From: a phage
Reading direction: 5' to 3' (one strand)
DNA length: 64,000 bases
Sequence record: PQ374922.1
Made by a program: the position numbers and the translations under genes. The notes under the pieces were generated by a model. That model did no database searches. It was not told the origin of the DNA and was given only the letters and a program-made list of their open reading frames with translations. Of the stretch, positions 41,328-54,490 are shown in pieces. Position 1 is the stretch's first letter; each line of letters begins with the position of its first letter.

Positions 41328-42317
41328 ATGTCTAATATCACAATTGTAAAAGACCAGTATGCATGGGAAAACCGCTTCCGCCCTGACAACCTGGACGAGA
41401 TTATCATCCCTCAAGACGTCCGCGCTAAAATCCATGGCTACATCACCAGCGGCAACGGCAACATCCCGTCTATGCTGTTCTACTCCCCTCAGCCTGGTAC
41501 TGGCAAGACTACCTCCGCCCTGGCCGTGTGTAACGAGATCGGTTGTAAGCAACCACTGATGATCAACGCATCCCTGGACAACAGCATCGACGTTATCCGT
41601 GACCGCGTGATTCAGTACTCTACTGGTGTGAGCGTATTCGGTGGTCGCAAAGTCGTTATCCTCGACGAAGTAGAGCGTCTGTCTATGGCGGCACAGGAGT
41701 CGCTGAAGGGTATTGTGGAGAAGGTCTCCAAGAACTGTTCATTCATCCTGACCACCAACGCCAAGCAACGTGTGAACGAACCTCTGCGCTCTCGTTGCCG
41801 TGAAATCGACTTTATCTGGAATGAGACCGAGGCTGATGAGGTCAAACTTCAGTTCATGCGCCGCTGTGCTGAAATCCTTCGCTGCGAAGGTGTTGAGTAT
41901 GACCCTCCTGTGTTGGCTGCTATTGTCAAGCGCCATTTCCCTGATAACCGCCGCATCATGGGTGTTCTACAGGATAACGTCACCACTTACGGCAAGATCG
42001 ACGAACGTGCACTGGCTGTGTTAAAATCGGCCGATATGGGCATGTTGGTGAATATGTTGAAGGATAATGACTGGGCTGGGATGAAGCAGTGGGTGACCGA
42101 CAACCAGAACTATATCACTGAAGACTTCTATTCCCGCTTCTTCCAGTTCTGTGTACCACAGGATAAAGAGAAGCAAATGTTGGTTCAGAATGAGTCTATC
42201 CCTGATCTGGTATGTGTATGTGGTCAGTCTCAGATTGAACACCGTCAAGTCGGCGATGTCTGGCTGCATGCTGTGTTTTTCCTGACCAATGTCATGCTCA
42301 ACATCAAGTGGAAGTGA
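41328..42317 (+). CDS. Clamp loader large subunit, gp44-like AAA+ ATPase
   Basis: Walker A PQPGTGKTTSA, Walker B ILDEVE, sensor region; follows gp45 as in T4. Confidence 0.85.
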   Translation: MSNITIVKDQYAWENRFRPDNLDEIIIPQDVRAKIHGYITSGNGNIPSMLFYSPQPGTGKTTSALAVCNEIGCKQPLMINASLDNSIDVIRDRVIQYSTGVSVFGGRKVVILDEVERLSMAAQESLKGIVEKVSKNCSFILTTNAKQRVNEPLRSRCREIDFIWNETEADEVKLQFMRRCAEILRCEGVEYDPPVLAAIVKRHFPDNRRIMGVLQDNVTTYGKIDERALAVLKSADMGMLVNMLKDNDWAGMKQWVTDNQNYITEDFYSRFFQFCVPQDKEKQMLVQNESIPDLVCVCGQSQIEHRQVGDVWLHAVFFLTNVMLNIKWK

Positions 42318-42773: not shown

Positions 42774-43238
42774 ATGGCGCGTAATACGCTAGACATATTG
42801 AATATTTCAGCAGTCAACGATGAGGCCAGCATCGTTGATTGTATGGTTGAAGTTCAATTGAACCAAGATCGGCCAGGTATATTCCTGGGGATCAAGGAAA
42901 CACTGAGTCGAATTGGGGTAAACACGCGCCAAGAGCCGAATACTCTGTATCAGACTTGCCATATTCTTCATAAGTGTGGTAAGTATTATATCGTCCACTT
43001 CAAGCATCTATTTATGCTGGACGGGCATTATAACGGATTTAACCGCGAAGATGTCCTGAGGATGAACCGAATCATCAAGCTGCTGGAGCAGTGGAACATG
43101 GTGAAGGTCATTCATCCTGAGCAGGTCACTGAAGCAGCCGATATGTCTCGCATTAAAGTGGTTAAACACGATCAGGTTCCTGAATGGAAACTGGTTCCAA
43201 AATACATCATCCGGCCTACGAAGGCAAAAAGCGAATAA
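42774..43238 (+). CDS. regA: Translational repressor RegA
   Basis: IKETLSRIGVNTRQEPNTLYQTCHILHKCGKYYIVHFKHLFMLDG and PEWKLVPKYII closely match T4 RegA. Confidence 0.9.
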   Translation: MARNTLDILNISAVNDEASIVDCMVEVQLNQDRPGIFLGIKETLSRIGVNTRQEPNTLYQTCHILHKCGKYYIVHFKHLFMLDGHYNGFNREDVLRMNRIIKLLEQWNMVKVIHPEQVTEAADMSRIKVVKHDQVPEWKLVPKYIIRPTKAKSE

Positions 43239-44195: not shown

Positions 44196-45416
44196 ATGAA
44201 AGATAAAGCCCTGGACGTCCCGTACTGCGGTGTCCGTGAAGAAAAGATAAAGTCGGCCAAACCGGTTCTCAGTCCGACCCATACCTGCCTGTCTTACGAA
44301 TGGATGCGCGATCGTTATCAGATCCACGTCAAGAAGGACGTCCAGCGCCTTCCTGCTCCTTGGACTGATAATCCCATATTACGGCAGGTCAAGTTCTGTA
44401 ACGTCCGGAGAGAGCACGACAGGCAGTCTCTCAACCTGATCAACAACATCGTCAACAACGATGCTCTGGGTATGGCCGACAAGATGTTCAACTGCGTGTT
44501 GTTCCGCATGTTCAACCTCTGGGATCCAATCCAGGCTATCGGCGGCGCGATGACGATCAAAGAATTCGCCGAGATCAACCTCGATGCAACCCGCGAACGA
44601 CTTAAGAAGTTCGAGGCCGACGGCGGTAAGGTATTCACCAATGCCTTCAACACGGGCGGCCTGAAACAATGCCTGGCTTTCCCTGAGATGGTTGTCAACC
44701 ACAAGGAGCAGCGCTTCGGTGGGATGATGGTGAATCTGATCTGTAAAGATGGTTCAACCCAGAACATGGATTATAAAGAAGCCAAGGCGATAGCCGAAGC
44801 AGAACCGGACTTCTACACCATCGAAGGTTGGGAACCGTACATGCCAATGCGTGTCATCCGCTCCCTGAAGGCATTCGTCAACAAGTATCCAAATTACTTC
44901 CATGACCTGCTGCGCCTTGGTACTCCTTTGGAAGTATACCAGCGCATGTACGACGACATCGAAGGGCTTGGTCCATTCCTGGCCTATCAGATCTGGGTAG
45001 ACTTCACTTACATTCCTGAATATCCTTTCAGTGAGAACCACTTCACGGTTGCTGGACCAGGCTGTCGCGCAGGGATCGACCTGATGTTCCAGGACAAAGA
45101 TGGCATGACGCATGAAGAATGCATCTTCTGGTTGCGGGACAATCAGGACGCGGTTTATGGCCCTCTTGGGTATAACAGGGAAGAATTTTGGTCTGCGGAA
45201 GAGCCTTGGGATCAGTGTATGAATGTGATGAGCATCGAGAATATGGCATGTGAATTGTCGAAATATACTCGTTGTGTAGAGGCCATACAGCAAGGTAAAA
45301 AACCGCGCGGGAAGGTTGGATATGACGGCGGTGGGGAATACAAAAAGCGCTGTGATGAAGTCGTGCTCAAACGTGGTTCCGTCAATTTGCTGGACCGTTT
45401 GAAGAAACCTGAATAA
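44196..45416 (+). CDS. Hypothetical protein (406 aa)
   Basis: RBS aagagga; no recognisable motif by eye. Confidence 0.55.
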   Translation: MKDKALDVPYCGVREEKIKSAKPVLSPTHTCLSYEWMRDRYQIHVKKDVQRLPAPWTDNPILRQVKFCNVRREHDRQSLNLINNIVNNDALGMADKMFNCVLFRMFNLWDPIQAIGGAMTIKEFAEINLDATRERLKKFEADGGKVFTNAFNTGGLKQCLAFPEMVVNHKEQRFGGMMVNLICKDGSTQNMDYKEAKAIAEAEPDFYTIEGWEPYMPMRVIRSLKAFVNKYPNYFHDLLRLGTPLEVYQRMYDDIEGLGPFLAYQIWVDFTYIPEYPFSENHFTVAGPGCRAGIDLMFQDKDGMTHEECIFWLRDNQDAVYGPLGYNREEFWSAEEPWDQCMNVMSIENMACELSKYTRCVEAIQQGKKPRGKVGYDGGGEYKKRCDEVVLKRGSVNLLDRLKKPE

Positions 45417-45530: not shown

Positions 45531-47549
45531 ATGTCAGATTTTAAGCCCTTCGCAGTAGCTGTCAACAATAACGTGCTGGCCATGTCAGCAACTGGTCTGT
45601 TCATGACCAACATCGATAAAGATGCTCTGTGGGATCTGTATCTGTCTTCTTTCCCTGCTGGCACTAACCCGCTTTATCGTGAGCGTACCGAGCACGACTG
45701 TACCTGCTGCAAACAATTCATCCGTAACATCGGCGGTGTAGTCACCATCGACTCCGATCTGAACGTGATCTCTATCTGGGATAACATTCAGCTGGGTAAC
45801 GAATACGACGTTGTCGCTGCGGCGCTGTCAGCATATGTTAAGCAGCACGCAATCGTCGACGTGTACTTCAACGACACCAAGAAAGTTGGTGTTGAATCGA
45901 ATCACGAAATGAAAGACGGTATTGTCCGCACCTACAACCACTTCCACACCGACCTGCTGGGCAGCTATGTTCTGCGGGCAGATACCATCGCTTCTAAGAA
46001 GGGTGAAATCCGCCAGGCGATTGAAGTGTTTGAGCGCGGCCTGCGTGAACTGTCTCTGGAATCGGCTGAAATCGTTCTGGAATTGATCGACCAGAATTCT
46101 CTGTATCGCGGTGAAGAGCACAAAGCGGCAGTGCAGGCGTTCGTGGTGAACAAGACCCTGTACGAACAAACTGCAGAAGAGAAACGCGCTCTGTGGGCTT
46201 GGCGCACTGGCTACCGTGCAAACGGTCATACCCCTCACGGCATTCGTAATACCGTGATTGGCTCTCTGCTGGTAGACCTCAATGAAGGCCGGGATCTGGA
46301 AACCGCCGTGAAGTCCTTTGAAGCCAAAGTCGCTCCGACGAACTACAAGCGCCCAACCGCGCTGGTCACGAAATCCATGATTGAAAACGCGCAGAAAGAA
46401 GTCGAAGCGCTGGGTCTGACTGATTCACTGGGTCGCCGTTATGCCGTGTATGACGATCTGACCATCAACAACGTTCTGTTCGCCGACCTAGCAGCTCAGA
46501 AGAAGATGGACCCGTTTGCTCAGCTGGCGTCTGAAGTGAAGACTCCGACCAAGTCCCTGGACAAGGTTGAAGAGATCACGATCGACGACTTCCTGACCAA
46601 CGTGTTGCCAAAGGCGCATTCCCTGGAAGTGCTGGTCGAAAACTCTCACATTGGCAACCTGATGTCCCTGATCGCTCCGGCCACCGCAGGCGCTCCTAAC
46701 CTGTTCAAGTGGAACAACGGCTTCAGCTGGTCGTACAATGGCGAAGTGGCCGACTCCATCAAAGAGCGCGTGAAGACCGCAGGCGGCAATGTCGACAGCT
46801 TCCTCCGTGTGTCACTGGCTTGGCATAACAACGACGACCTGGATCTGAGCCTGAACGATCCTCTTCACAACCACGTGTATTATCACAACCGTCGTTCGAC
46901 AACTGGCGCAACTCTAGACATCGACATGAACGGTATGGACGGCATTGATCCAAACCGCCGTCCGGTGGAGAACATCTTCTTCAGCGATGAACGCAAGCTG
47001 CGTGATGGTCTGTACGAGTTCTATGTCACTAACTTCAGCCAGCGTGAAACCTGTGATATGGGCTTCGAAATCGAAGTTGAATACAAAGGCCAGACCAAGC
47101 GTTTTTCGCATCCTGGCCTGAAGCACAAAGATCGCACTCTGGCTGTTGTGATTGATGTCCGCGCTGGACAAGTGGTAGACATCCGTTCTACCCTGAAAGA
47201 CGACGCTCGCTCTCAGGAAATCTGGGGCATCAAGACCTCCGTCTTCCAGAAGGTACAGCTGGTTCTGAACTCACCAAACCATTGGGACGGCGAGCAGACT
47301 GGCAACAAGCACGTGTTCTTCATCCTGGAAGGTTGTGCTAACCCTGTCGGCACCCGTGGTTTCTATAACGAATATCTGAAGCCGGAACTTGATAAACACC
47401 GCAAGGTTTTTGAAATGTTAGGTGGTAAGATTAAAGTACAGCCAAGCACTGAGCAGCTGTCCGGTCTGGGCTTCTCTACCACCCAACGCAACCACGTGTT
47501 CGTGAAGGTGAGCGGTTCGTTCAACCGCACTGTGAAAGTTGTGTTCTAA
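45531..47549 (+). CDS. Large hypothetical protein (672 aa); weak ADP-ribosyltransferase-like signature in the C-terminal half
   Basis: RBS aggaag; R...STT...EIE spacing loosely reminiscent of R-S-E ADP-ribosyltransferases; not confirmed. Confidence 0.5.
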   Translation: MSDFKPFAVAVNNNVLAMSATGLFMTNIDKDALWDLYLSSFPAGTNPLYRERTEHDCTCCKQFIRNIGGVVTIDSDLNVISIWDNIQLGNEYDVVAAALSAYVKQHAIVDVYFNDTKKVGVESNHEMKDGIVRTYNHFHTDLLGSYVLRADTIASKKGEIRQAIEVFERGLRELSLESAEIVLELIDQNSLYRGEEHKAAVQAFVVNKTLYEQTAEEKRALWAWRTGYRANGHTPHGIRNTVIGSLLVDLNEGRDLETAVKSFEAKVAPTNYKRPTALVTKSMIENAQKEVEALGLTDSLGRRYAVYDDLTINNVLFADLAAQKKMDPFAQLASEVKTPTKSLDKVEEITIDDFLTNVLPKAHSLEVLVENSHIGNLMSLIAPATAGAPNLFKWNNGFSWSYNGEVADSIKERVKTAGGNVDSFLRVSLAWHNNDDLDLSLNDPLHNHVYYHNRRSTTGATLDIDMNGMDGIDPNRRPVENIFFSDERKLRDGLYEFYVTNFSQRETCDMGFEIEVEYKGQTKRFSHPGLKHKDRTLAVVIDVRAGQVVDIRSTLKDDARSQEIWGIKTSVFQKVQLVLNSPNHWDGEQTGNKHVFFILEGCANPVGTRGFYNEYLKPELDKHRKVFEMLGGKIKVQPSTEQLSGLGFSTTQRNHVFVKVSGSFNRTVKVVF

Positions 47550-47985: not shown

Positions 47986-48014
47986 GCAACCCCGCCATGT
48001 GCGGGGTTTCTTTT
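47986..48014 (+). terminator. Rho-independent terminator (aaccccgccatgtgcggggtttctttt)
   Basis: GC stem plus T-tract after stop at 47965. Confidence 0.65.
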
Positions 48015-48025
48015 GGACAAAGAAT

Positions 48026-48436
48026 ATGAAACTTGTCATCTGTGATTACTGCGGCCTCCTAGCCGAATTCGTCGGTGGTGATGTTCTCTACCCTCATCGC
48101 CCTGACCTCCGCAATCTGAAGTTCTGGGTTTGTACCCCATGTGATGCCCGTGTCGGTTGCCATGCCCATGGCGACGGCAGACAACCTCTGGGAAGGATGG
48201 CGAATGCCGCTCTCCGTGCCGAGAAGCAAAAAGCCCATAGATCGTTTGACCCATTATGGAAAGGCGGAGAGAGGAGCAGGAGCGACGCTTACAGTTGGCT
48301 GGCGCATAAGCTGGGGATAAAGAAGCGTGAGTGTCATATTGGCTTGTTCGATATCGACATGTGCCGTAAAGTAGTTGTTGTCTGTCAACAATACGAGGCA
48401 CATATCAATGTCAAAGGAAATACAAGAAGCGTTTGA
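48026..48436 (+). CDS. Zinc-ribbon hypothetical protein (136 aa)
   Basis: CDYC...CTPC cysteine pairs; ORF track begins upstream at 47999. Confidence 0.5.
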   Translation: MKLVICDYCGLLAEFVGGDVLYPHRPDLRNLKFWVCTPCDARVGCHAHGDGRQPLGRMANAALRAEKQKAHRSFDPLWKGGERSRSDAYSWLAHKLGIKKRECHIGLFDIDMCRKVVVVCQQYEAHINVKGNTRSV

Positions 48437-49062: not shown

Positions 49063-49917
49063 ATGTTTCGTTTGAAATTGAACGACCAAGATGTGTTCTA
49101 CAAACACTTCACCTTCCCAGGTGGTGAGGAACATATCAAGATTCAAAAGTCTGGTATCCCTATCGGCCACGTTCAGAACGTGGCGATTGATGCTCACATC
49201 AAATCATCGGCTGACTTCATTGAGCTGGCGCTTCTGGTAAACGCCGTTCGTGGTCTGGGTAACGTGGACCGTCTGACGACATTCCATGCGTATATCCCTT
49301 ACTTCCCGTATGCTCGCCAGGACCGCCATTGTGACTTCGGTGAGCCTCTGTCTGTGAAGTGGGCGGCTGAGTTCATCAATAGCATGAACTTTGACCGCGT
49401 GGCGATCAAAGATCCTCACAGCCATGTTGTGTCTTCTCTGATCAACAACGTCCATGTTGTCCCGCAAGATTACATCGTGCGTCAGTATCTGGGCTGGTTC
49501 ATCCGTGGGAACAACGCTGTGTTGGTAGCCCCTGACGGCGGCGCGGCTAAGAAGACCGAAGCCCTCAGTCTGTCGTTGGACGGTGTTCCTGTTGTCTACG
49601 GTCACAAGAACCGTGACACCAAGACTGGTGAGATCATTGGGGTGAGTATTACGAACCCTGAACTGATCAAAGACCGCTATCTGGTGGTGGTCGATGATAT
49701 CTGCGACGGTGGGCGCACGTTCGTTGAGTTAGGCAAAGAGCTTCAGAAGCACAAGCCTAAGCACATGACGCTCTTCGTTACCCATGGCATCTTCAGCAAA
49801 GGTCTCTCTGTTTTCGACGGGATCTATGATGCTGTGTATGCCGACACTGTCTGGTGGGAGAACATCACCGCCGACGGGCTTCCTTTCAAAACTGAAAATA
49901 CAGGACGTGTAAAATGA
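49063..49917 (+). CDS. Ribose-phosphate pyrophosphokinase-family protein (Prs-like; candidate ADP-ribose pyrophosphate synthetase of NARP1)
   Basis: 284 aa; phosphoribosyl-binding loop LVVVDDICDGGRT (diverges from canonical DTGGT); RBS gagg. Confidence 0.8.
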   Translation: MFRLKLNDQDVFYKHFTFPGGEEHIKIQKSGIPIGHVQNVAIDAHIKSSADFIELALLVNAVRGLGNVDRLTTFHAYIPYFPYARQDRHCDFGEPLSVKWAAEFINSMNFDRVAIKDPHSHVVSSLINNVHVVPQDYIVRQYLGWFIRGNNAVLVAPDGGAAKKTEALSLSLDGVPVVYGHKNRDTKTGEIIGVSITNPELIKDRYLVVVDDICDGGRTFVELGKELQKHKPKHMTLFVTHGIFSKGLSVFDGIYDAVYADTVWWENITADGLPFKTENTGRVK

Positions 49918-51578
49918 GCATGCGCCACTTAGACCCAATCCATGCGATCGACTTCTACAAATCGGGGCACATCTATCAGTTCCCTGAAGGCAGTGAGCTG
50001 GTGTTCTCCAACGGAACTCCGCGCTCTAACAAACTGTTCAACTCTCACCTGCCGAAGAACGGCGTGGTGGTCTGGGGCATCCAGGGCTTCATGACCTGGT
50101 TCCACGAACTGTTTGACGAAGCATTCTTCCAGCGCCCGAAGGCCAAGGTGCTGAAGAAGTATGCCCGTCGCATGAACAAAGTCCTGGGTCCAGGCCGCGT
50201 CGGCACAGAGCATATTGAAGCCCTGCATGACCTCGGCTACCTGCCTATCGAAGTCCGTGCGCTGCCTGAAGGCACCATGTGTCCGTATGGCGTTCCGGTG
50301 TATGTGATGTTCAATACCCTGCCGGAGTTCTACTGGCTGACCAACTATCTGGAGACTGTGTTCAGCTCTGAGATCTGGAAGCCGATGACGAACGCCACCA
50401 TAGCTCTGCATTACAAGGCACTGATGGTGAAAGCTGCCCTCGCTACGGGAGTATCACCAGACCATTGGTTCATCGACTACCAAGGTCACGACTTCTCCTT
50501 CCGTGGTATGAGCGGGTGGCATGACGCCGCGTCTTCCGGTTCCGGTCATCTGGTGTTCTTCAAAGGCACCGACACCAACCCTGCCCTGGACTTCGTAGAA
50601 GAGTATTATGGCGCAGACATCGACGAAGACTATGTCGTTGCTGGGTCGGTTGCCGCAACGGAACATGCGGTGATGTGTATGGGCACGAAGGATGGTGAAT
50701 TCGAAACCTTCCGCCGCCTGGTGCAGGACGTGTATCCTGATGGCATCGTCAGCATCGTGTCTGATGCGTGGGATTACTGGCAGGTCATCGACGACTATCT
50801 GCCTCGCCTGAAAGACATTATCATGGCGCGCAATGGTAAAGTCGTGATCCGCCCCGACTCGGGCGACCCTGTACACATCGTCGGCGGCTACCGCATCGAG
50901 GGGTTCAAAGACCGCGCTACGCTGAACATCAGCGGCGTGTCTAGCAGCACCGAAGTTATCCACATCGAAGAGACGAACACCTATCACCTGATCACAGGCG
51001 AAGGCACGATCAACTCTCTGATGGCAGATGACCGTAATATCATCAGCCGTTCAGAAGCGGTCGGCTCTATCCAGCGCCTGTGGGAGATCTTTGGTGGCAC
51101 CCAGACTGAAACTGGGCACTTCCTGTTGGATGAGCACATCGGCCTGATCTACGGTGATTCTATCACCCTGGCGCGTGAAGACCAGATCTTTAGCCGTCTG
51201 GCTGACCGGAACTTCGCTTCCATCAACGTGGTGTTCGGTATCGGTTCCTACACCTACCAGATGAACACCCGTGACAGTACTGGCACAGCAGTGAAAGCCA
51301 CGGCTGGTAAAGTGAACGGTGAATTCCGTGAGATCTTCAAAGAGCCGAAGACCGATAAAGGCGGGACTAAAAAGTCTGCGCGTGGTTTCCTTAAAGTCAT
51401 TAAAGACCCTCAGGGTAAACTAGTGTTGGTTGACGGTATCACTTTTGATCAGGTGCAAGACGCCGACAACCAGCACCAGCTGGTGTATCGTGATGGCGAG
51501 TTCTTCAATACTCAAACACTGGAAGATGCGCGTGTTCGTGCTGCTCCTCTGGTGACGGAACTGGCATCACAAATCTGA
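49914..51578 (+). CDS. Nicotinamide phosphoribosyltransferase-family protein (Nampt/NadV-like; candidate nicotinamide ADP-ribose transferase of NARP1)
   Basis: 554 aa; DFYKSGH and RPDSGDP hallmarks of the Nampt family; start overlaps upstream stop (ATGA). Confidence 0.85.
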   Translation: MSMRHLDPIHAIDFYKSGHIYQFPEGSELVFSNGTPRSNKLFNSHLPKNGVVVWGIQGFMTWFHELFDEAFFQRPKAKVLKKYARRMNKVLGPGRVGTEHIEALHDLGYLPIEVRALPEGTMCPYGVPVYVMFNTLPEFYWLTNYLETVFSSEIWKPMTNATIALHYKALMVKAALATGVSPDHWFIDYQGHDFSFRGMSGWHDAASSGSGHLVFFKGTDTNPALDFVEEYYGADIDEDYVVAGSVAATEHAVMCMGTKDGEFETFRRLVQDVYPDGIVSIVSDAWDYWQVIDDYLPRLKDIIMARNGKVVIRPDSGDPVHIVGGYRIEGFKDRATLNISGVSSSTEVIHIEETNTYHLITGEGTINSLMADDRNIISRSEAVGSIQRLWEIFGGTQTETGHFLLDEHIGLIYGDSITLAREDQIFSRLADRNFASINVVFGIGSYTYQMNTRDSTGTAVKATAGKVNGEFREIFKEPKTDKGGTKKSARGFLKVIKDPQGKLVLVDGITFDQVQDADNQHQLVYRDGEFFNTQTLEDARVRAAPLVTELASQI

Positions 51579-51585
51579 TAACCGA

Positions 51586-51610
51586 AGGGGAGGCAACTCC
51601 CCTGTTTTGA
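51586..51610 (+). terminator. Rho-independent terminator (aggggaggcaactcccctgtttt)
   Basis: GC stem plus T-tract after stop at 51578. Confidence 0.65.
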
Positions 51611-51680: not shown

Positions 51681-51896
51681 ATGATACTGAAAGAATGTTT
51701 TACCGACCTGAAGGCGACGTCTGAAAGTATTCCGGCTTGCATTCAGAACTATGCTCCAAAGGATGTGCTCTTGGCTCAGCTGGAGCAGTCTCGTGAATTT
51801 ATCAACAATATGCTGGACTCTGTAAAGACGCGCATCGAAGCCGCTGATGAGTCTGAACTTAACCCTTACGCACAAGGCGAAGAAAACAATGATTGA
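51681..51896 (+). CDS. Small hypothetical protein (71 aa)
   Basis: Weak RBS; overlaps the start of the vWA gene by 8 nt. Confidence 0.35.
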   Translation: MILKECFTDLKATSESIPACIQNYAPKDVLLAQLEQSREFINNMLDSVKTRIEAADESELNPYAQGEENND

Positions 51897-54090
51897 ATCA
51901 TTAGAATTTAAGAATGCGGTTGCGACTGCTGCCCCGTCCAACCATGTAATCGTTGTAGACATTTCCGGCTCTATGTACCGTGCGCTCCCTGAAGTCCGCA
52001 AGCACCTGAAGGAGAACCTGCCATCCCTGGTGAAACCGGAAGACACTGTGAGTGTTCTATACTTCTCATCCAAAGGCGACTTTGGTACTGTGTTCGCTGG
52101 CCGTCAGATCAATGCAGCATCCGACCTGAGCGAAATCAACAATCTGATTGACCGCTTCCTGAAACCGTCTGGTTGCACTGGCTTTGTTGAGCCGTTGAAA
52201 CTGGCGATGGACACTGCTCGTGGCCTGAAGAAGCCTGGCTATGTCAACAACCTGGCGTTCATGACTGACGGGTATGACAACTGCTGGCGTACCAACGAAA
52301 TTCTACTGGTTGCTGAGACCCTGCCATTTGCTTTCGATAACATTACATTTATTGAATATGGCTGGTACTGTAACCGCGAACTGCTGGCGCAGATGGCCGA
52401 ACGCTCTGGTGCTACTCACGTGTTTGCCGAAGGTCAGACCGAATACCAGACCGAACTGGAAAACGTGCTGAAGTCATCAGTGCCGAAGGTGAAAGTTGAT
52501 GTCCCAGTCATCTACACCCATGCCATCTACGTCGAAAACGGTGTGGCAACAGTACTGGCGGTGCAGGACGATGACTCTCACCCGGTCGGCTATGTGAGCA
52601 TCCCTGAGAGCATCACCAAGCTGTGGGTTGTAAACCCTAACATGATCGACCAGCTTGATGCGCTGGCGGATATCCAGGCGGCATACGTGCTGGCGTTCTA
52701 CGGCGTACACATCATGGACGCGGACCTGGTGTGGGCTGCACTGAAGAAAACGGGTGACGTTCGCTTCATCAAACAGTACAGCAACTGCTTCACCAAGCAG
52801 GACTACTCCAACATCAAGAACGATCTGGTTCAGGCGATTGTTGACGACCAGCTGCGCGGCGTTGACGGTATTGACTATGACCTGGTTCCGGCTGAAGATG
52901 CGACCACCGTCGTTGATGTGCTGACGTACCTGGCTGAAGCTGGTGTGCCTGTTGCTACCAAGCATCCGATGTTCTCCTATAAGAGCATCGGGCGCGGTAC
53001 TGTGCAGAAAACCGACGACACCGAAGACAAGCTGGCAGAACAGATCGCGAATGCTCAGTCCAAAGAAGAGCGTAAAGCCCTGGCTCTCAAGCTGGCAGAA
53101 CACGAAGAGTGGAACCCGACGTTCGAACCTACCAACGACCTGGGTGTTGTGCCAATCAGCGATTTGGTCTATAACTCCGAGCGCCCGAACATCAGTGTGC
53201 GTACAATTCAACACGGTACTGTGGCTGTGCCTGAATTCGCACAGAAGAAGTTTGGCCTGCCTGAAGAACTGGACACTTTCCAGTGGCGCAACTACACCAT
53301 CGTCAAAGACGGCATCATCAACGTGAAGACTCTGCCGTTCAAGGCTGATATCGAAGTTGTACAGAAGCTGATCGAAATGGGCGTCCACGTGTTTGGTGGT
53401 CCGGAAGTGTTCATCCTGAACCTGGAAAGCGTACCACTGGTCAACCGCGCCATGGTCAAGAACATCAGTGCTGCTCAGTTCTTTGCGGATAATGTCCGTT
53501 TGGAAGCCCTGAAAGGCAAGCAGAAGGTGCTGAAGTTCTATCGAGACGCCCTGGTTGGTAAGGGTAACGCCAAAGGCCTGGCAGTACAGTACGGTGCTGA
53601 GGCGGCCGAGTTCCTGTCCTCCTACGGTATCCGCGATTACGGCTTCTCACCGAAGACTGAGACCAAAGAGTCTACCGACTTCTACATGAGCCGTGAGCTG
53701 AACGTTAAGATCGCCGGGGCGTCTTCACTACCGAGCATCGCGGCAGTACAGAAGAAGATCGCAGAGAATAAGAAACTCAATGCTGGTGACTTGTTTATCG
53801 CCAATGCTCTGAAAGAGTACGAAGCATTCGTGAAGTCTCCTATGATCACTGCCGTGCCTGAAGCCTTACAGAAACAGCTGATCGAAAACTGGATCGACGC
53901 TGCTGCCAAGGCGGCCATCACCGAAGTCCGTGCCCTGAACAAGACACTGTCTAAAGTGGTGTATGGTATCGTTGCTGGCCACGGCTGGTTCACCGACCTC
54001 GACCTGGAAGAGTCCACCATGGAAGTTGAAGTGGATGGCGTGAAGTACAAGGTCACTGCCGAACTGACAGAGAAAGAAATCAAAATCTAA
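51889..54090 (+). CDS. von Willebrand factor type A (vWA) domain protein (733 aa)
   Basis: N-terminal MIDAS-like VIVVDISGSMY (DxSxS); long C-terminal region unrecognised; start chosen at second in-frame ATG. Confidence 0.6.
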   Translation: MIESLEFKNAVATAAPSNHVIVVDISGSMYRALPEVRKHLKENLPSLVKPEDTVSVLYFSSKGDFGTVFAGRQINAASDLSEINNLIDRFLKPSGCTGFVEPLKLAMDTARGLKKPGYVNNLAFMTDGYDNCWRTNEILLVAETLPFAFDNITFIEYGWYCNRELLAQMAERSGATHVFAEGQTEYQTELENVLKSSVPKVKVDVPVIYTHAIYVENGVATVLAVQDDDSHPVGYVSIPESITKLWVVNPNMIDQLDALADIQAAYVLAFYGVHIMDADLVWAALKKTGDVRFIKQYSNCFTKQDYSNIKNDLVQAIVDDQLRGVDGIDYDLVPAEDATTVVDVLTYLAEAGVPVATKHPMFSYKSIGRGTVQKTDDTEDKLAEQIANAQSKEERKALALKLAEHEEWNPTFEPTNDLGVVPISDLVYNSERPNISVRTIQHGTVAVPEFAQKKFGLPEELDTFQWRNYTIVKDGIINVKTLPFKADIEVVQKLIEMGVHVFGGPEVFILNLESVPLVNRAMVKNISAAQFFADNVRLEALKGKQKVLKFYRDALVGKGNAKGLAVQYGAEAAEFLSSYGIRDYGFSPKTETKESTDFYMSRELNVKIAGASSLPSIAAVQKKIAENKKLNAGDLFIANALKEYEAFVKSPMITAVPEALQKQLIENWIDAAAKAAITEVRALNKTLSKVVYGIVAGHGWFTDLDLEESTMEVEVDGVKYKVTAELTEKEIKI

Positions 54091-54096
54091 TCCAAC

Positions 54097-54121
54097 GGGC
54101 GGGGCAACCCGCCTTTCTTTG
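54097..54121 (+). terminator. Terminator-like hairpin (ggcggg-gcaa-cccgcc + T-tract)
   Basis: After stop at 54090. Confidence 0.6.
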
Positions 54122-54132
54122 GGAGAAGTAGC

Positions 54133-54456
54133 ATGAGCAGTAAACCAACATATGTTGAAGTCATGCGTCATCTGGCTCAGTACGCCACTGACAATCTGAA
54201 TATGGATCTGTGGCGTGACGATGACAAGCGCAAATTGCTGGACGACGTGGCATCTCAGAACGAGGACGCCCTGGACAAGCTGGCTGGCCTCCGTACCAAG
54301 AAAGACCTCGGCGGTGATGAACTGGATGCCATCGAAATTGTAATGGAACTAGAAGAAGAGTTCAACGTCGAAATCGACGACGGTTGGCTGGGTAGTAAAG
54401 GTGATGACCCGACCATGGGTGAACTCGCTGAACTCGTGGTTGCCCTGCGCAAATAA
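54133..54456 (+). CDS. Acyl carrier protein-like protein with Glu replacing the phosphopantetheine-attachment Ser
   Basis: KDLGGDELDAIEIVMELEEEFNVEI aligns with the E. coli ACP core [25 protein letters not shown]; residue 63 (54319-54321) is GAA/Glu where ACP has Ser. Confidence 0.65.
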   Translation: MSSKPTYVEVMRHLAQYATDNLNMDLWRDDDKRKLLDDVASQNEDALDKLAGLRTKKDLGGDELDAIEIVMELEEEFNVEIDDGWLGSKGDDPTMGELAELVVALRK

Positions 54457-54460
54457 CAGA

Positions 54461-54490
54461 AGCCCCCAACAAACGTTGGGGATTTTTACT
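54461..54490 (+). terminator. Rho-independent terminator (cccccaac-aaac-gttggggg + T-tract)
   Basis: 8-bp stem plus T-run after stop at 54456. Confidence 0.65.

Follow-up and report, generated by a model that had tools for sequence, protein, structure and literature searches.

What kind of protein is encoded by a long gene of unassigned function in an Ackermannviridae (ViI-like) phage, and does it act with a dedicated partner? The gene lies at 51889-54090 in the stretch of DNA that we analysed (sequence record PQ374922.1, 64,000 nucleotides, hereafter the window). A first-pass annotation made from the sequence had described its product as a large protein with a von Willebrand factor A (vWA) domain and a MIDAS motif (for metal ion-dependent adhesion site), of a type to which no function is attached. 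The vWA annotation itself is already in GenBank and is not new: homologues are labelled 'VWA domain-containing protein' from LIMEstone1 onward, ORF119c of phage RB43 included, and the family is phrog_2426, which carries no function. In the literature we found no functional study of this family. The gene and the parts of its product are as follows.

51889..54090, + strand: vWA-family gene, 733-aa product, TAA stop codon at 54088-54090 (from the open reading frame list)
51889..52476, + strand: vWA domain, residues 1-196, a short N-terminal strand and then a canonical vWA alpha/beta domain
51958..51972, + strand: MIDAS loop 1, D24-I-S26-G-S28 (DxSxS), invariant in the homologue alignment
52177..52179, + strand: MIDAS loop 2 threonine T97, preceding helix alpha3 (100-113), 260/260
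52267..52269, + strand: MIDAS loop 3 aspartate D127, within TDGYDN, where beta4 ends (strand 119-126), 260/260
52477..52635, + strand: beta-sandwich, residues 197-249, following the vWA domain as in ArnB, 4fx5, ITIH and the Sec23/24 trunk plus barrel
52636..54087, + strand: C-terminal module, residues 250-733, family-specific, no relative found

The vWA assignment was examined with profiles, a structural model and residue conservation. The segment VIVVDISGSMY, on which the first-pass annotation was built, corresponds to residues 20-30. The Pfam model VWA (PF00092) matched residues 20-184 with E=3.6e-6 and a score of 27.7 bits, the curated cut-off being 23.8; VWA_2 and VWA_3 scored below their own cut-offs on this protein, and VWA_2 was matched in 55 of 62 homologues. 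When a profile of 62 homologues was compared with PDB sequences, it returned solved vWA proteins, including ArnB (8s05, E 1.1e-5) and ITIH1 (E 6.5e-5). An AlphaFold2 model calculated on the 62-homologue alignment had a predicted local distance difference test score (pLDDT) of 88.9, and its elements follow the vWA order b1-a1-b2-b3-a2-a3-b4-a4-b5-a5-b6-a6 exactly, giving a six-stranded alpha/beta domain. In this model b1 is followed by D24, S26 and S28, the loop leading into a3 contains T97, and D127 comes after b4. Structure prediction had been proposed at first pass as a check on the MIDAS, and it placed the motif residues at the canonical positions (end of beta1, loop before alpha3, end of beta4).

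Conservation was counted over 260 sequences, the query and 259 family members, which reach down to ~31% identity. D24, S28, T97 and D127 were each conserved in 260/260, and S26 in 259/260, the lone exception being a threonine. G128 and N131 of the TDGYDN motif were likewise present in 260/260 each. Even the very divergent ORF156 of Ralstonia phage RP13, which falls below Pfam recognition, retains DxSxS...T...D. Since the MIDAS residues are near-invariant down to ~31% identity and are kept in RP13 ORF156, the pattern points to selection acting on the putative metal site. The vWA/MIDAS call goes beyond a chance motif and the protein is a clear member of the vWA superfamily; the claim of a large vWA protein with a MIDAS motif was borne out by Pfam, profile, model and all five MIDAS residues.

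The region of known fold extends over the first 250-320 residues, and not just the first 190, and is of the vWA/beta-sandwich core type. A fold comparison gave the paired values 289 and 23.5 for 4fx5, 265 and 22.3 for ArnB (8s05), 275 and 22.4 for ITIH1, and 280-311 and 15-16 for Sec24/Sec23. On this comparison, residues 197-249 are assigned to an arrangement in which a vWA domain is inserted in a beta-sandwich and a helical bundle follows, and the first helices after residue 249 are probably also part of this ArnB/YfbK/Sec23-24 arrangement. The phage protein has each of its components, that is the vWA domain, the beta-sandwich and a following helical domain. In ArnB, YfbK and the Sec23/24 core a vWA domain likewise lies in a beta-sandwich with a helical bundle behind it, and ArnB is an intracellular protein-protein interaction module whose MIDAS holds a metal ion (PMC12852372).

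The N-terminal unit of the phage protein is therefore of the same 'Sec23/24 core motif' kind as ArnB/ArnE of Sulfolobus, 4fx5 of Catenulispora and YfbK-type proteins, at a sequence identity to ArnB, 4fx5 and the YfbK type of only 12-16%. The partners of ArnB are the zinc-finger/FHA protein ArnA, a kinase and a phosphatase, whereas the phage gene has neither an FHA protein nor a kinase linked to it, and the nearby DUF3268 zinc-finger gene (47999-48436) has an unrelated distribution that offers no ArnA-like link. The phage protein also adds ~400 residues without counterpart in ArnB, 4fx5 or Sec23/24. Similarity to ITIH1 and ITIH4 is restricted to the N-terminal unit, and the ITIH proteins belong to eukaryotes, are extracellular and differ in their biology. 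The one end-to-end match is phrog_2426, which is the same family and has no characterised member.

Behind this core the first-pass annotation had seen about 550 residues without a recognisable motif, which was essentially right: residues 250-733, ~480 residues, have no known relative. They are laid out as a helical region (250-410), a beta-rich region (411-517), long helices (518-700) and a terminal beta-hairpin. Modelled alone, residues 250-733 reached a pLDDT of 92.3 and a predicted template modelling score (pTM) of 0.85, and are thus predicted to form a single confident unit. In every full-length member of the family, the vWA domain and this module are conserved together. A Foldseek search of the 250-733 model against BFVD returned family members only, together with an uncharacterised 361-aa protein of Bacillus phage SP-15. 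Whether the query was the protein alone or the family profile, PDB sequence searches gave vWA matches only, and Pfam and PHROG scans of the 62 aligned members gave only vWA models and the unannotated phrog_2426. No NCBIfam or PADLOC model covers the module, and no defence-system model was matched. In the fold, Pfam and PDB-profile searches no recognised enzyme fold or family was found for residues 250-733, and the module, ~480 residues in length, is without a relative among solved structures. Its conserved motifs are NCFTKQDYSN, RPNIS, RNYTIVKDGI, GIRDYGFSPK, ESTDFY and GLSSLPS, and near-invariant polar residues are found at Y364, R432, N434, D474, K546, D597 and Y599.

A search for the family returned 1227 cluster representatives at E <= 1e-3 and 590 at E <= 1e-30; among the 150 matches listed, all were ~680-820 aa long and most aligned over almost their full length. 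Among cultured phages, 504 records from at least four lineages carry it. These include Ackermannviridae, Straboviridae (RB43 with ORF119c and 172-180 kb phages of Klebsiella, Enterobacter and Cronobacter), Kleczkowskaviridae of Rhizobium, Goe21, a jumbo phage of Bacillus (Takahashivirus), and Ralstonia phage RP13. The gene recurs in RB43-like, Slopekvirus, Karamvirus-like and marine large phages, and metagenomic homologues lie on phage-like contigs of 140-290 kb. In a published comparison of Ackermannviridae it is among the conserved genes (PMC10892097). A search of bacteria and archaea found 6 full-length copies in 185,579 species genomes. Because 504 phage records stand against these 6 copies, the family is essentially phage-specific.

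Two of the matches in bacterial assemblies were looked at individually. A homologue in Flagellimonas marina (locus L015, NZ_JBHSCL010000010.1), 49% identical to the query, lies on a 178 kb contig. Since this identity and contig size match the 172-180 kb T4-like phages of Enterobacteria, the contig probably represents a phage genome that was assembled together with that of the bacterium. The copy in Novimethylophilus kurashikiensis (locus L016, 7923-10070, on a 225 kb contig; 35% identity to the query) is bacterial. Its position is ~3 kb downstream of a type I secretion set made up of an ABC transporter, HlyD and an outer-membrane factor, in surroundings that look chromosomal rather than phage.

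The gene was also found to stand alone. An intact-MIDAS vWA domain in a cytoplasmic protein is what it shares with the MoxR-vWA, CobS-CobT, BchI-BchD and RavA-ViaA systems. The first-pass annotation had stated that no MoxR/CobS-like ATPase gene is adjacent, and this held: no AAA+ gene lies within ~6 kb of the vWA gene, and within 10 kb the only one is a gp44-like clamp loader. The absence is general, as no AAA+ gene adjoined the vWA gene in any of ~10 independent contexts (ChubbyThor, RB43, Goe21, Rhizobium TM30, RP13 and four metagenomic ones, including marine T4-like), nor was a neighbour gene shared across them. In the complete genome of the relative ChubbyThor, where many genes are annotated as 'hypothetical', no MoxR or CobS is annotated. 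A Walker-A motif scan for hidden ATPases was crude, covered part of the genome and missed the known clamp loader. Since the defining adjacent ATPase is absent from every context examined, the phage protein is not a member of the MoxR-vWA / CobS-CobT type, from which its domain order and C-terminal module also differ. The vWA gene is a stand-alone gene in several unrelated groups of large phages and is not specific to the block in which it lies here. It tends to sit in early/middle gene regions, often near nucleotide-metabolism genes; a ribonucleotide reductase (RNR) gene is near the homologue in a marine T4-like contig (L007) and in RP13, and RP13 also has a dUTPase there.

The protein has a net charge of -24, with a family median of -19, and all of its domains are acidic except for one short helical segment. 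Judged from composition, this acidity argues against general nucleic-acid binding. In CsCl-purified virions of phage Sajous1, analysed by liquid chromatography-tandem mass spectrometry, the vWA protein gave 1 spectrum, as against hundreds for structural proteins, and this count resembles those of the contaminants single-stranded DNA-binding protein (SSB) and glutaredoxin in the same table (PMC10892097). The spectrum shows that the protein is made, and it lends no support to a structural role. The protein is neither encoded in a structural gene module nor abundant in Sajous1 virions. Clear homology to a characterised structural protein, which at first pass had been named as an outcome that would overturn the proposal, was not found in the remote homology search.

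The reading that we favour, at a probability of roughly 0.5, is that the vWA protein stands alone, is no part of the virion, serves as an adaptor whose binding of other proteins depends on Mg2+ and the MIDAS, and carries an orphan module as effector or scaffold. As a soluble acidic protein it would act inside the infected cell and would not be a component of the virion; such a non-structural role is suggested by the surrounding replication and nucleotide-metabolism genes, by the count of only 1 spectrum in Sajous1 virions and by the net charge of -24. The MIDAS would hold a divalent cation, Mg2+ or Mn2+, and a Glu or Asp side chain of the partner protein would complete the coordination of this cation, resulting in metal-dependent protein capture. 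In integrin I-domains, as in other vWA proteins, an acidic side chain of the partner is known to complete MIDAS coordination. A second function, be it target specificity, scaffolding or another activity, may come from the rigid C-terminal module of 480 residues, and the protein would operate without a dedicated AAA+ partner. Because the hosts span Enterobacteria, Rhizobium, Ralstonia and Bacillus, the target would be a protein common to very different bacteria, or one common to large T4-like and jumbo myoviruses. That the C-terminal module is a new fold with an activity of its own, either that of an enzyme or that of a specific trap which captures a host factor, such as a housekeeping or immune protein, is a more tentative suggestion, to which we give well below an even chance.

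Several points weigh against this reading. We infer metal binding, ligand capture, the non-structural intracellular role and the very existence of a target, and the timing of expression is likewise inferred, from gene position alone. The invariant polar residues Y364, R432, N434, D474, K546, D597 and Y599 would be as much in keeping with the active site of an enzyme as with a surface for binding. Homologues bear the name 'minor tail protein' or 'tail protein' in a few GenBank records, although neither fold nor gene position supports the 'minor tail protein' labels. Finally, an unlinked AAA+ partner, encoded by host or phage, would be compatible with our comparison, which covered gene neighbourhoods and the annotation of one relative.

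The genes around the vWA gene were considered as candidate partners. The vWA gene shares its strand with a long series of genes for replication and metabolism. The neighbouring genes relevant here are the following.

41328-42317: gp44-like clamp loader, AAA+
42774-43238: RegA
44196-45416, + strand: 5-hydroxymethyldeoxyuridine (5-hmdU) DNA kinase, PF18723, E=3.7e-81
45531-47549, + strand: 672-aa protein of phrog_1735 (no function), no Pfam, NCBIfam or PDB match
47999-48436: DUF3268 zinc-finger gene
49063-49917: Prs-like gene
49914-51578: Nampt-like gene
51681..51896, + strand: 71-aa upstream open reading frame, matching phrog_20065 (no function), whose stop overlaps the vWA start by 8 nt (ATGATTGA)
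54133-54456, + strand: acyl carrier protein (ACP)-like gene, downstream of the vWA gene

The Prs-like/Nampt-like pair has what we take to be the composition of the NARP1 NAD-reconstitution pathway, and the vWA gene was correctly placed at first pass between this pair (49063-51578) and the ACP-like gene (54133-54456). The 5-hmdU DNA kinase marks a thymidine-hypermodification pathway of the sort typical of ViI-like phages. A functional link to the ACP-like gene, also raised at first pass, was not upheld by distribution: 275 records, nearly all of them Ackermannviridae, have the ACP-like protein, whereas the vWA family is in 504, Straboviridae, Kleczkowskaviridae and Takahashivirus included. The phrog_1735 protein was rejected as a partner on the same ground, with 558 records, many of them from N4-like, Caulobacter, Bacillus and cyanobacterial phages, as was the DUF3268 protein, whose 680 records are mostly from small phages without the vWA family. 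Poor conservation rules against the 71-aa upstream reading frame.

Further observations were made on two of these proteins. Full-length homologues of the phrog_1735 protein occur in Ackermannviridae, N4-like Alteromonas and Vibrio phages, and Caulobacter, Bacillus and Microcystis phages, so that it is a widespread orphan. The labels 'DNA-directed RNA polymerase' and 'serine protease' that it bears in some records found no support, and it has no relation to the PcfJ-like protein encoded beside a distant vWA homologue. The ACP-like protein has a 50-residue N-terminal extension, and PP-binding and acyl-carrier models match it over helix II only. At the position of the carrier-protein DSL it reads LGGDELDAIEIVMELEEEF, with Glu in place of the phosphopantetheine-attachment serine, and GGDELD is present in the ChubbyThor homologue as well. 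Because the attachment serine is replaced by Glu, the ACP-like protein, going by these residues, cannot be a conventional acyl carrier.

Among the other explanations, one places the function in the C-terminal module, which would hold the catalytic site of an unrecognised fold and act perhaps in the metabolism of nucleotides or cofactors, or upon a macromolecule of the host, with the vWA domain serving only to target or regulate it. The near-invariant polar residues, which fall in the short motifs NCFTKQDYSN, RPNIS, RNYTIVKDGI, GIRDYGFSPK and ESTDFY, speak for such an enzyme, as does the repeated nearness to the NAD salvage pair and 5-hmdU kinase in this phage, RNR in L007 and RP13, and dUTPase in RP13. 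However, the module resembled no enzyme fold or family in the searches run, and the neighbours vary by lineage, so that the association may only mirror a common early/middle region. We regard an enzyme as a possible but doubtful answer. Less probable still is a role as adaptor or co-chaperone to an AAA+ ATPase of the MoxR class that is unlinked, for example host RavA/MoxR, by which a complex of the phage or the host would be remodelled or assembled. The CobT/CobS, ViaA/RavA and ATV p892/p618 pairs are thought to remodel or assemble complexes in this manner, and MoxR ATPases are widespread in the hosts. Bacterial vWA proteins whose MIDAS is intact very often have a MoxR protein as partner, as is generally known and documented (PMC7824862), and MoxR-vWA pairs have been described in some jumbo phages (Iyer et al. 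2021; PMC7824862). If the phage protein worked in this way, it would do so without an adjoining AAA+ gene in each of the ~10 contexts, with a clamp loader as the nearest such gene here and with neither MoxR nor CobS in the ChubbyThor annotation, and its domain order, an N-terminal vWA domain followed by a 480-residue orphan module, is unlike that of ViaA, CobT or ChlD. We consider this improbable.

The tail and minor tail labels in some GenBank records, and the one peptide spectrum from purified Sajous1 virions, would be accounted for by a low-copy virion or assembly protein whose vWA domain adheres to the host surface or to a structural protein. The gene, however, is never in a structural module and lies here among replication and metabolism genes, a single spectrum is at the level of the contaminants SSB and glutaredoxin, phrog_2426 carries no structural label, and no fold similarity to tail proteins was observed. 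This explanation is accordingly given very little weight. A vWA domain followed by a DNA-encircling beta-barrel, as in a Ku-like or other nucleic-acid binder that protects or processes phage DNA ends, was rejected on fold and charge: neither a Ku-type barrel and bridge nor a basic surface was found, the net charge is -24 with a family median of -19, and relatives already encode a gp2-like DNA end protector. Its chance of being correct is slight in the extreme.

The first-pass annotation had also assigned the block terminators of its own, which is a fair description. Hairpins with U-tracts lie past the stops of the Nampt-like, vWA and ACP-like genes.

51586..51609, + strand: hairpin after the Nampt-like gene, 7-bp GC-rich stem, GCAA loop, GUUUUG, 8 nt past the stop
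54097..54120, + strand: terminator-like hairpin after the vWA gene, GGGCGGG-GCAA-CCCGCC with a U-rich tail, 7 nt past the stop, found by consensus scan
54464-54487, + strand: hairpin after the ACP-like gene, 7-bp GC-rich stem, AAAC tetraloop, U-rich tail

The hairpin at 51586..51609, with a fold energy of -14 kcal/mol (z -2.1), is absent from the consensus scan list; it marks the upstream boundary of the vWA block. That at 54097..54120 has a fold energy of -15.9 kcal/mol (z -2.7). The Nampt-like, vWA and ACP-like genes are consecutive and each has its hairpin no more than ~10 nt past the stop, while the total of terminator-like sites in the region, 12 against 12.1 in shuffled sequence, is at chance level. 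The arrangement suggests that the hairpins punctuate each gene separately, or stabilise mRNA. As for promoters, a T4-type late promoter (TATAAATA) was rejected: it occurs a single time in the window, which is the chance level, and not near the vWA gene.

The limits of the vWA gene itself were also considered. The + strand reading frame extends over 51847..54090, and the in-frame upstream ATG at 51847 is probably unused. The conserved start is at 51889 (MIESLEF...), and we take it to be the right one because homologue N-termini begin 'MIxxI' and the phrog_2426 profile aligns end to end, residues 1-733 corresponding to profile positions 2-736 of 736 (E reported as 0). The DNA of 51889-54090 is 96% identical to that of Escherichia phage YX22 and also matches ~125 Ackermannviridae records (Agtrevirus, Kuttervirus, Limestonevirus and Taipeivirus-type). 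The 71-aa upstream reading frame is probably translationally coupled to the vWA gene. It is confined to close relatives and not conserved beyond them, and it showed no similarity to the small reading frames 5' of the RB43 or marine homologues. A 303-aa antisense reading frame (52477-53388, - strand) lies entirely within the vWA gene and found no support; long antisense frames occur likewise in GC-rich homologous loci, for instance locus L020, and it is probably a compositional artefact.

What is new here, beyond the existing vWA label, is the absolute conservation of the metal site, the independence from partner genes, the spread among phages against near absence from bacteria, and the confidently folded orphan module. 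The present evidence shows no unusual mechanism for the protein, and if it is only a scaffold, it is one more accessory protein. Nevertheless, the vWA gene is a core gene of the Ackermannviridae, phages that are used in therapy and biocontrol, and the perfect conservation of a MIDAS in a phage protein of the cytoplasm suggests that one specific protein is its target. Clean loss-of-function mutants can be made at the MIDAS residues, and the C-terminal module, with its confident model and no PDB relative, is well suited to structure determination and to the search for a new functional domain. If this module does prove to be a new fold with an activity of its own, the family would represent a new class of MIDAS-using phage effectors, independent of AAA+ ATPases and common to many large virulent myoviruses.

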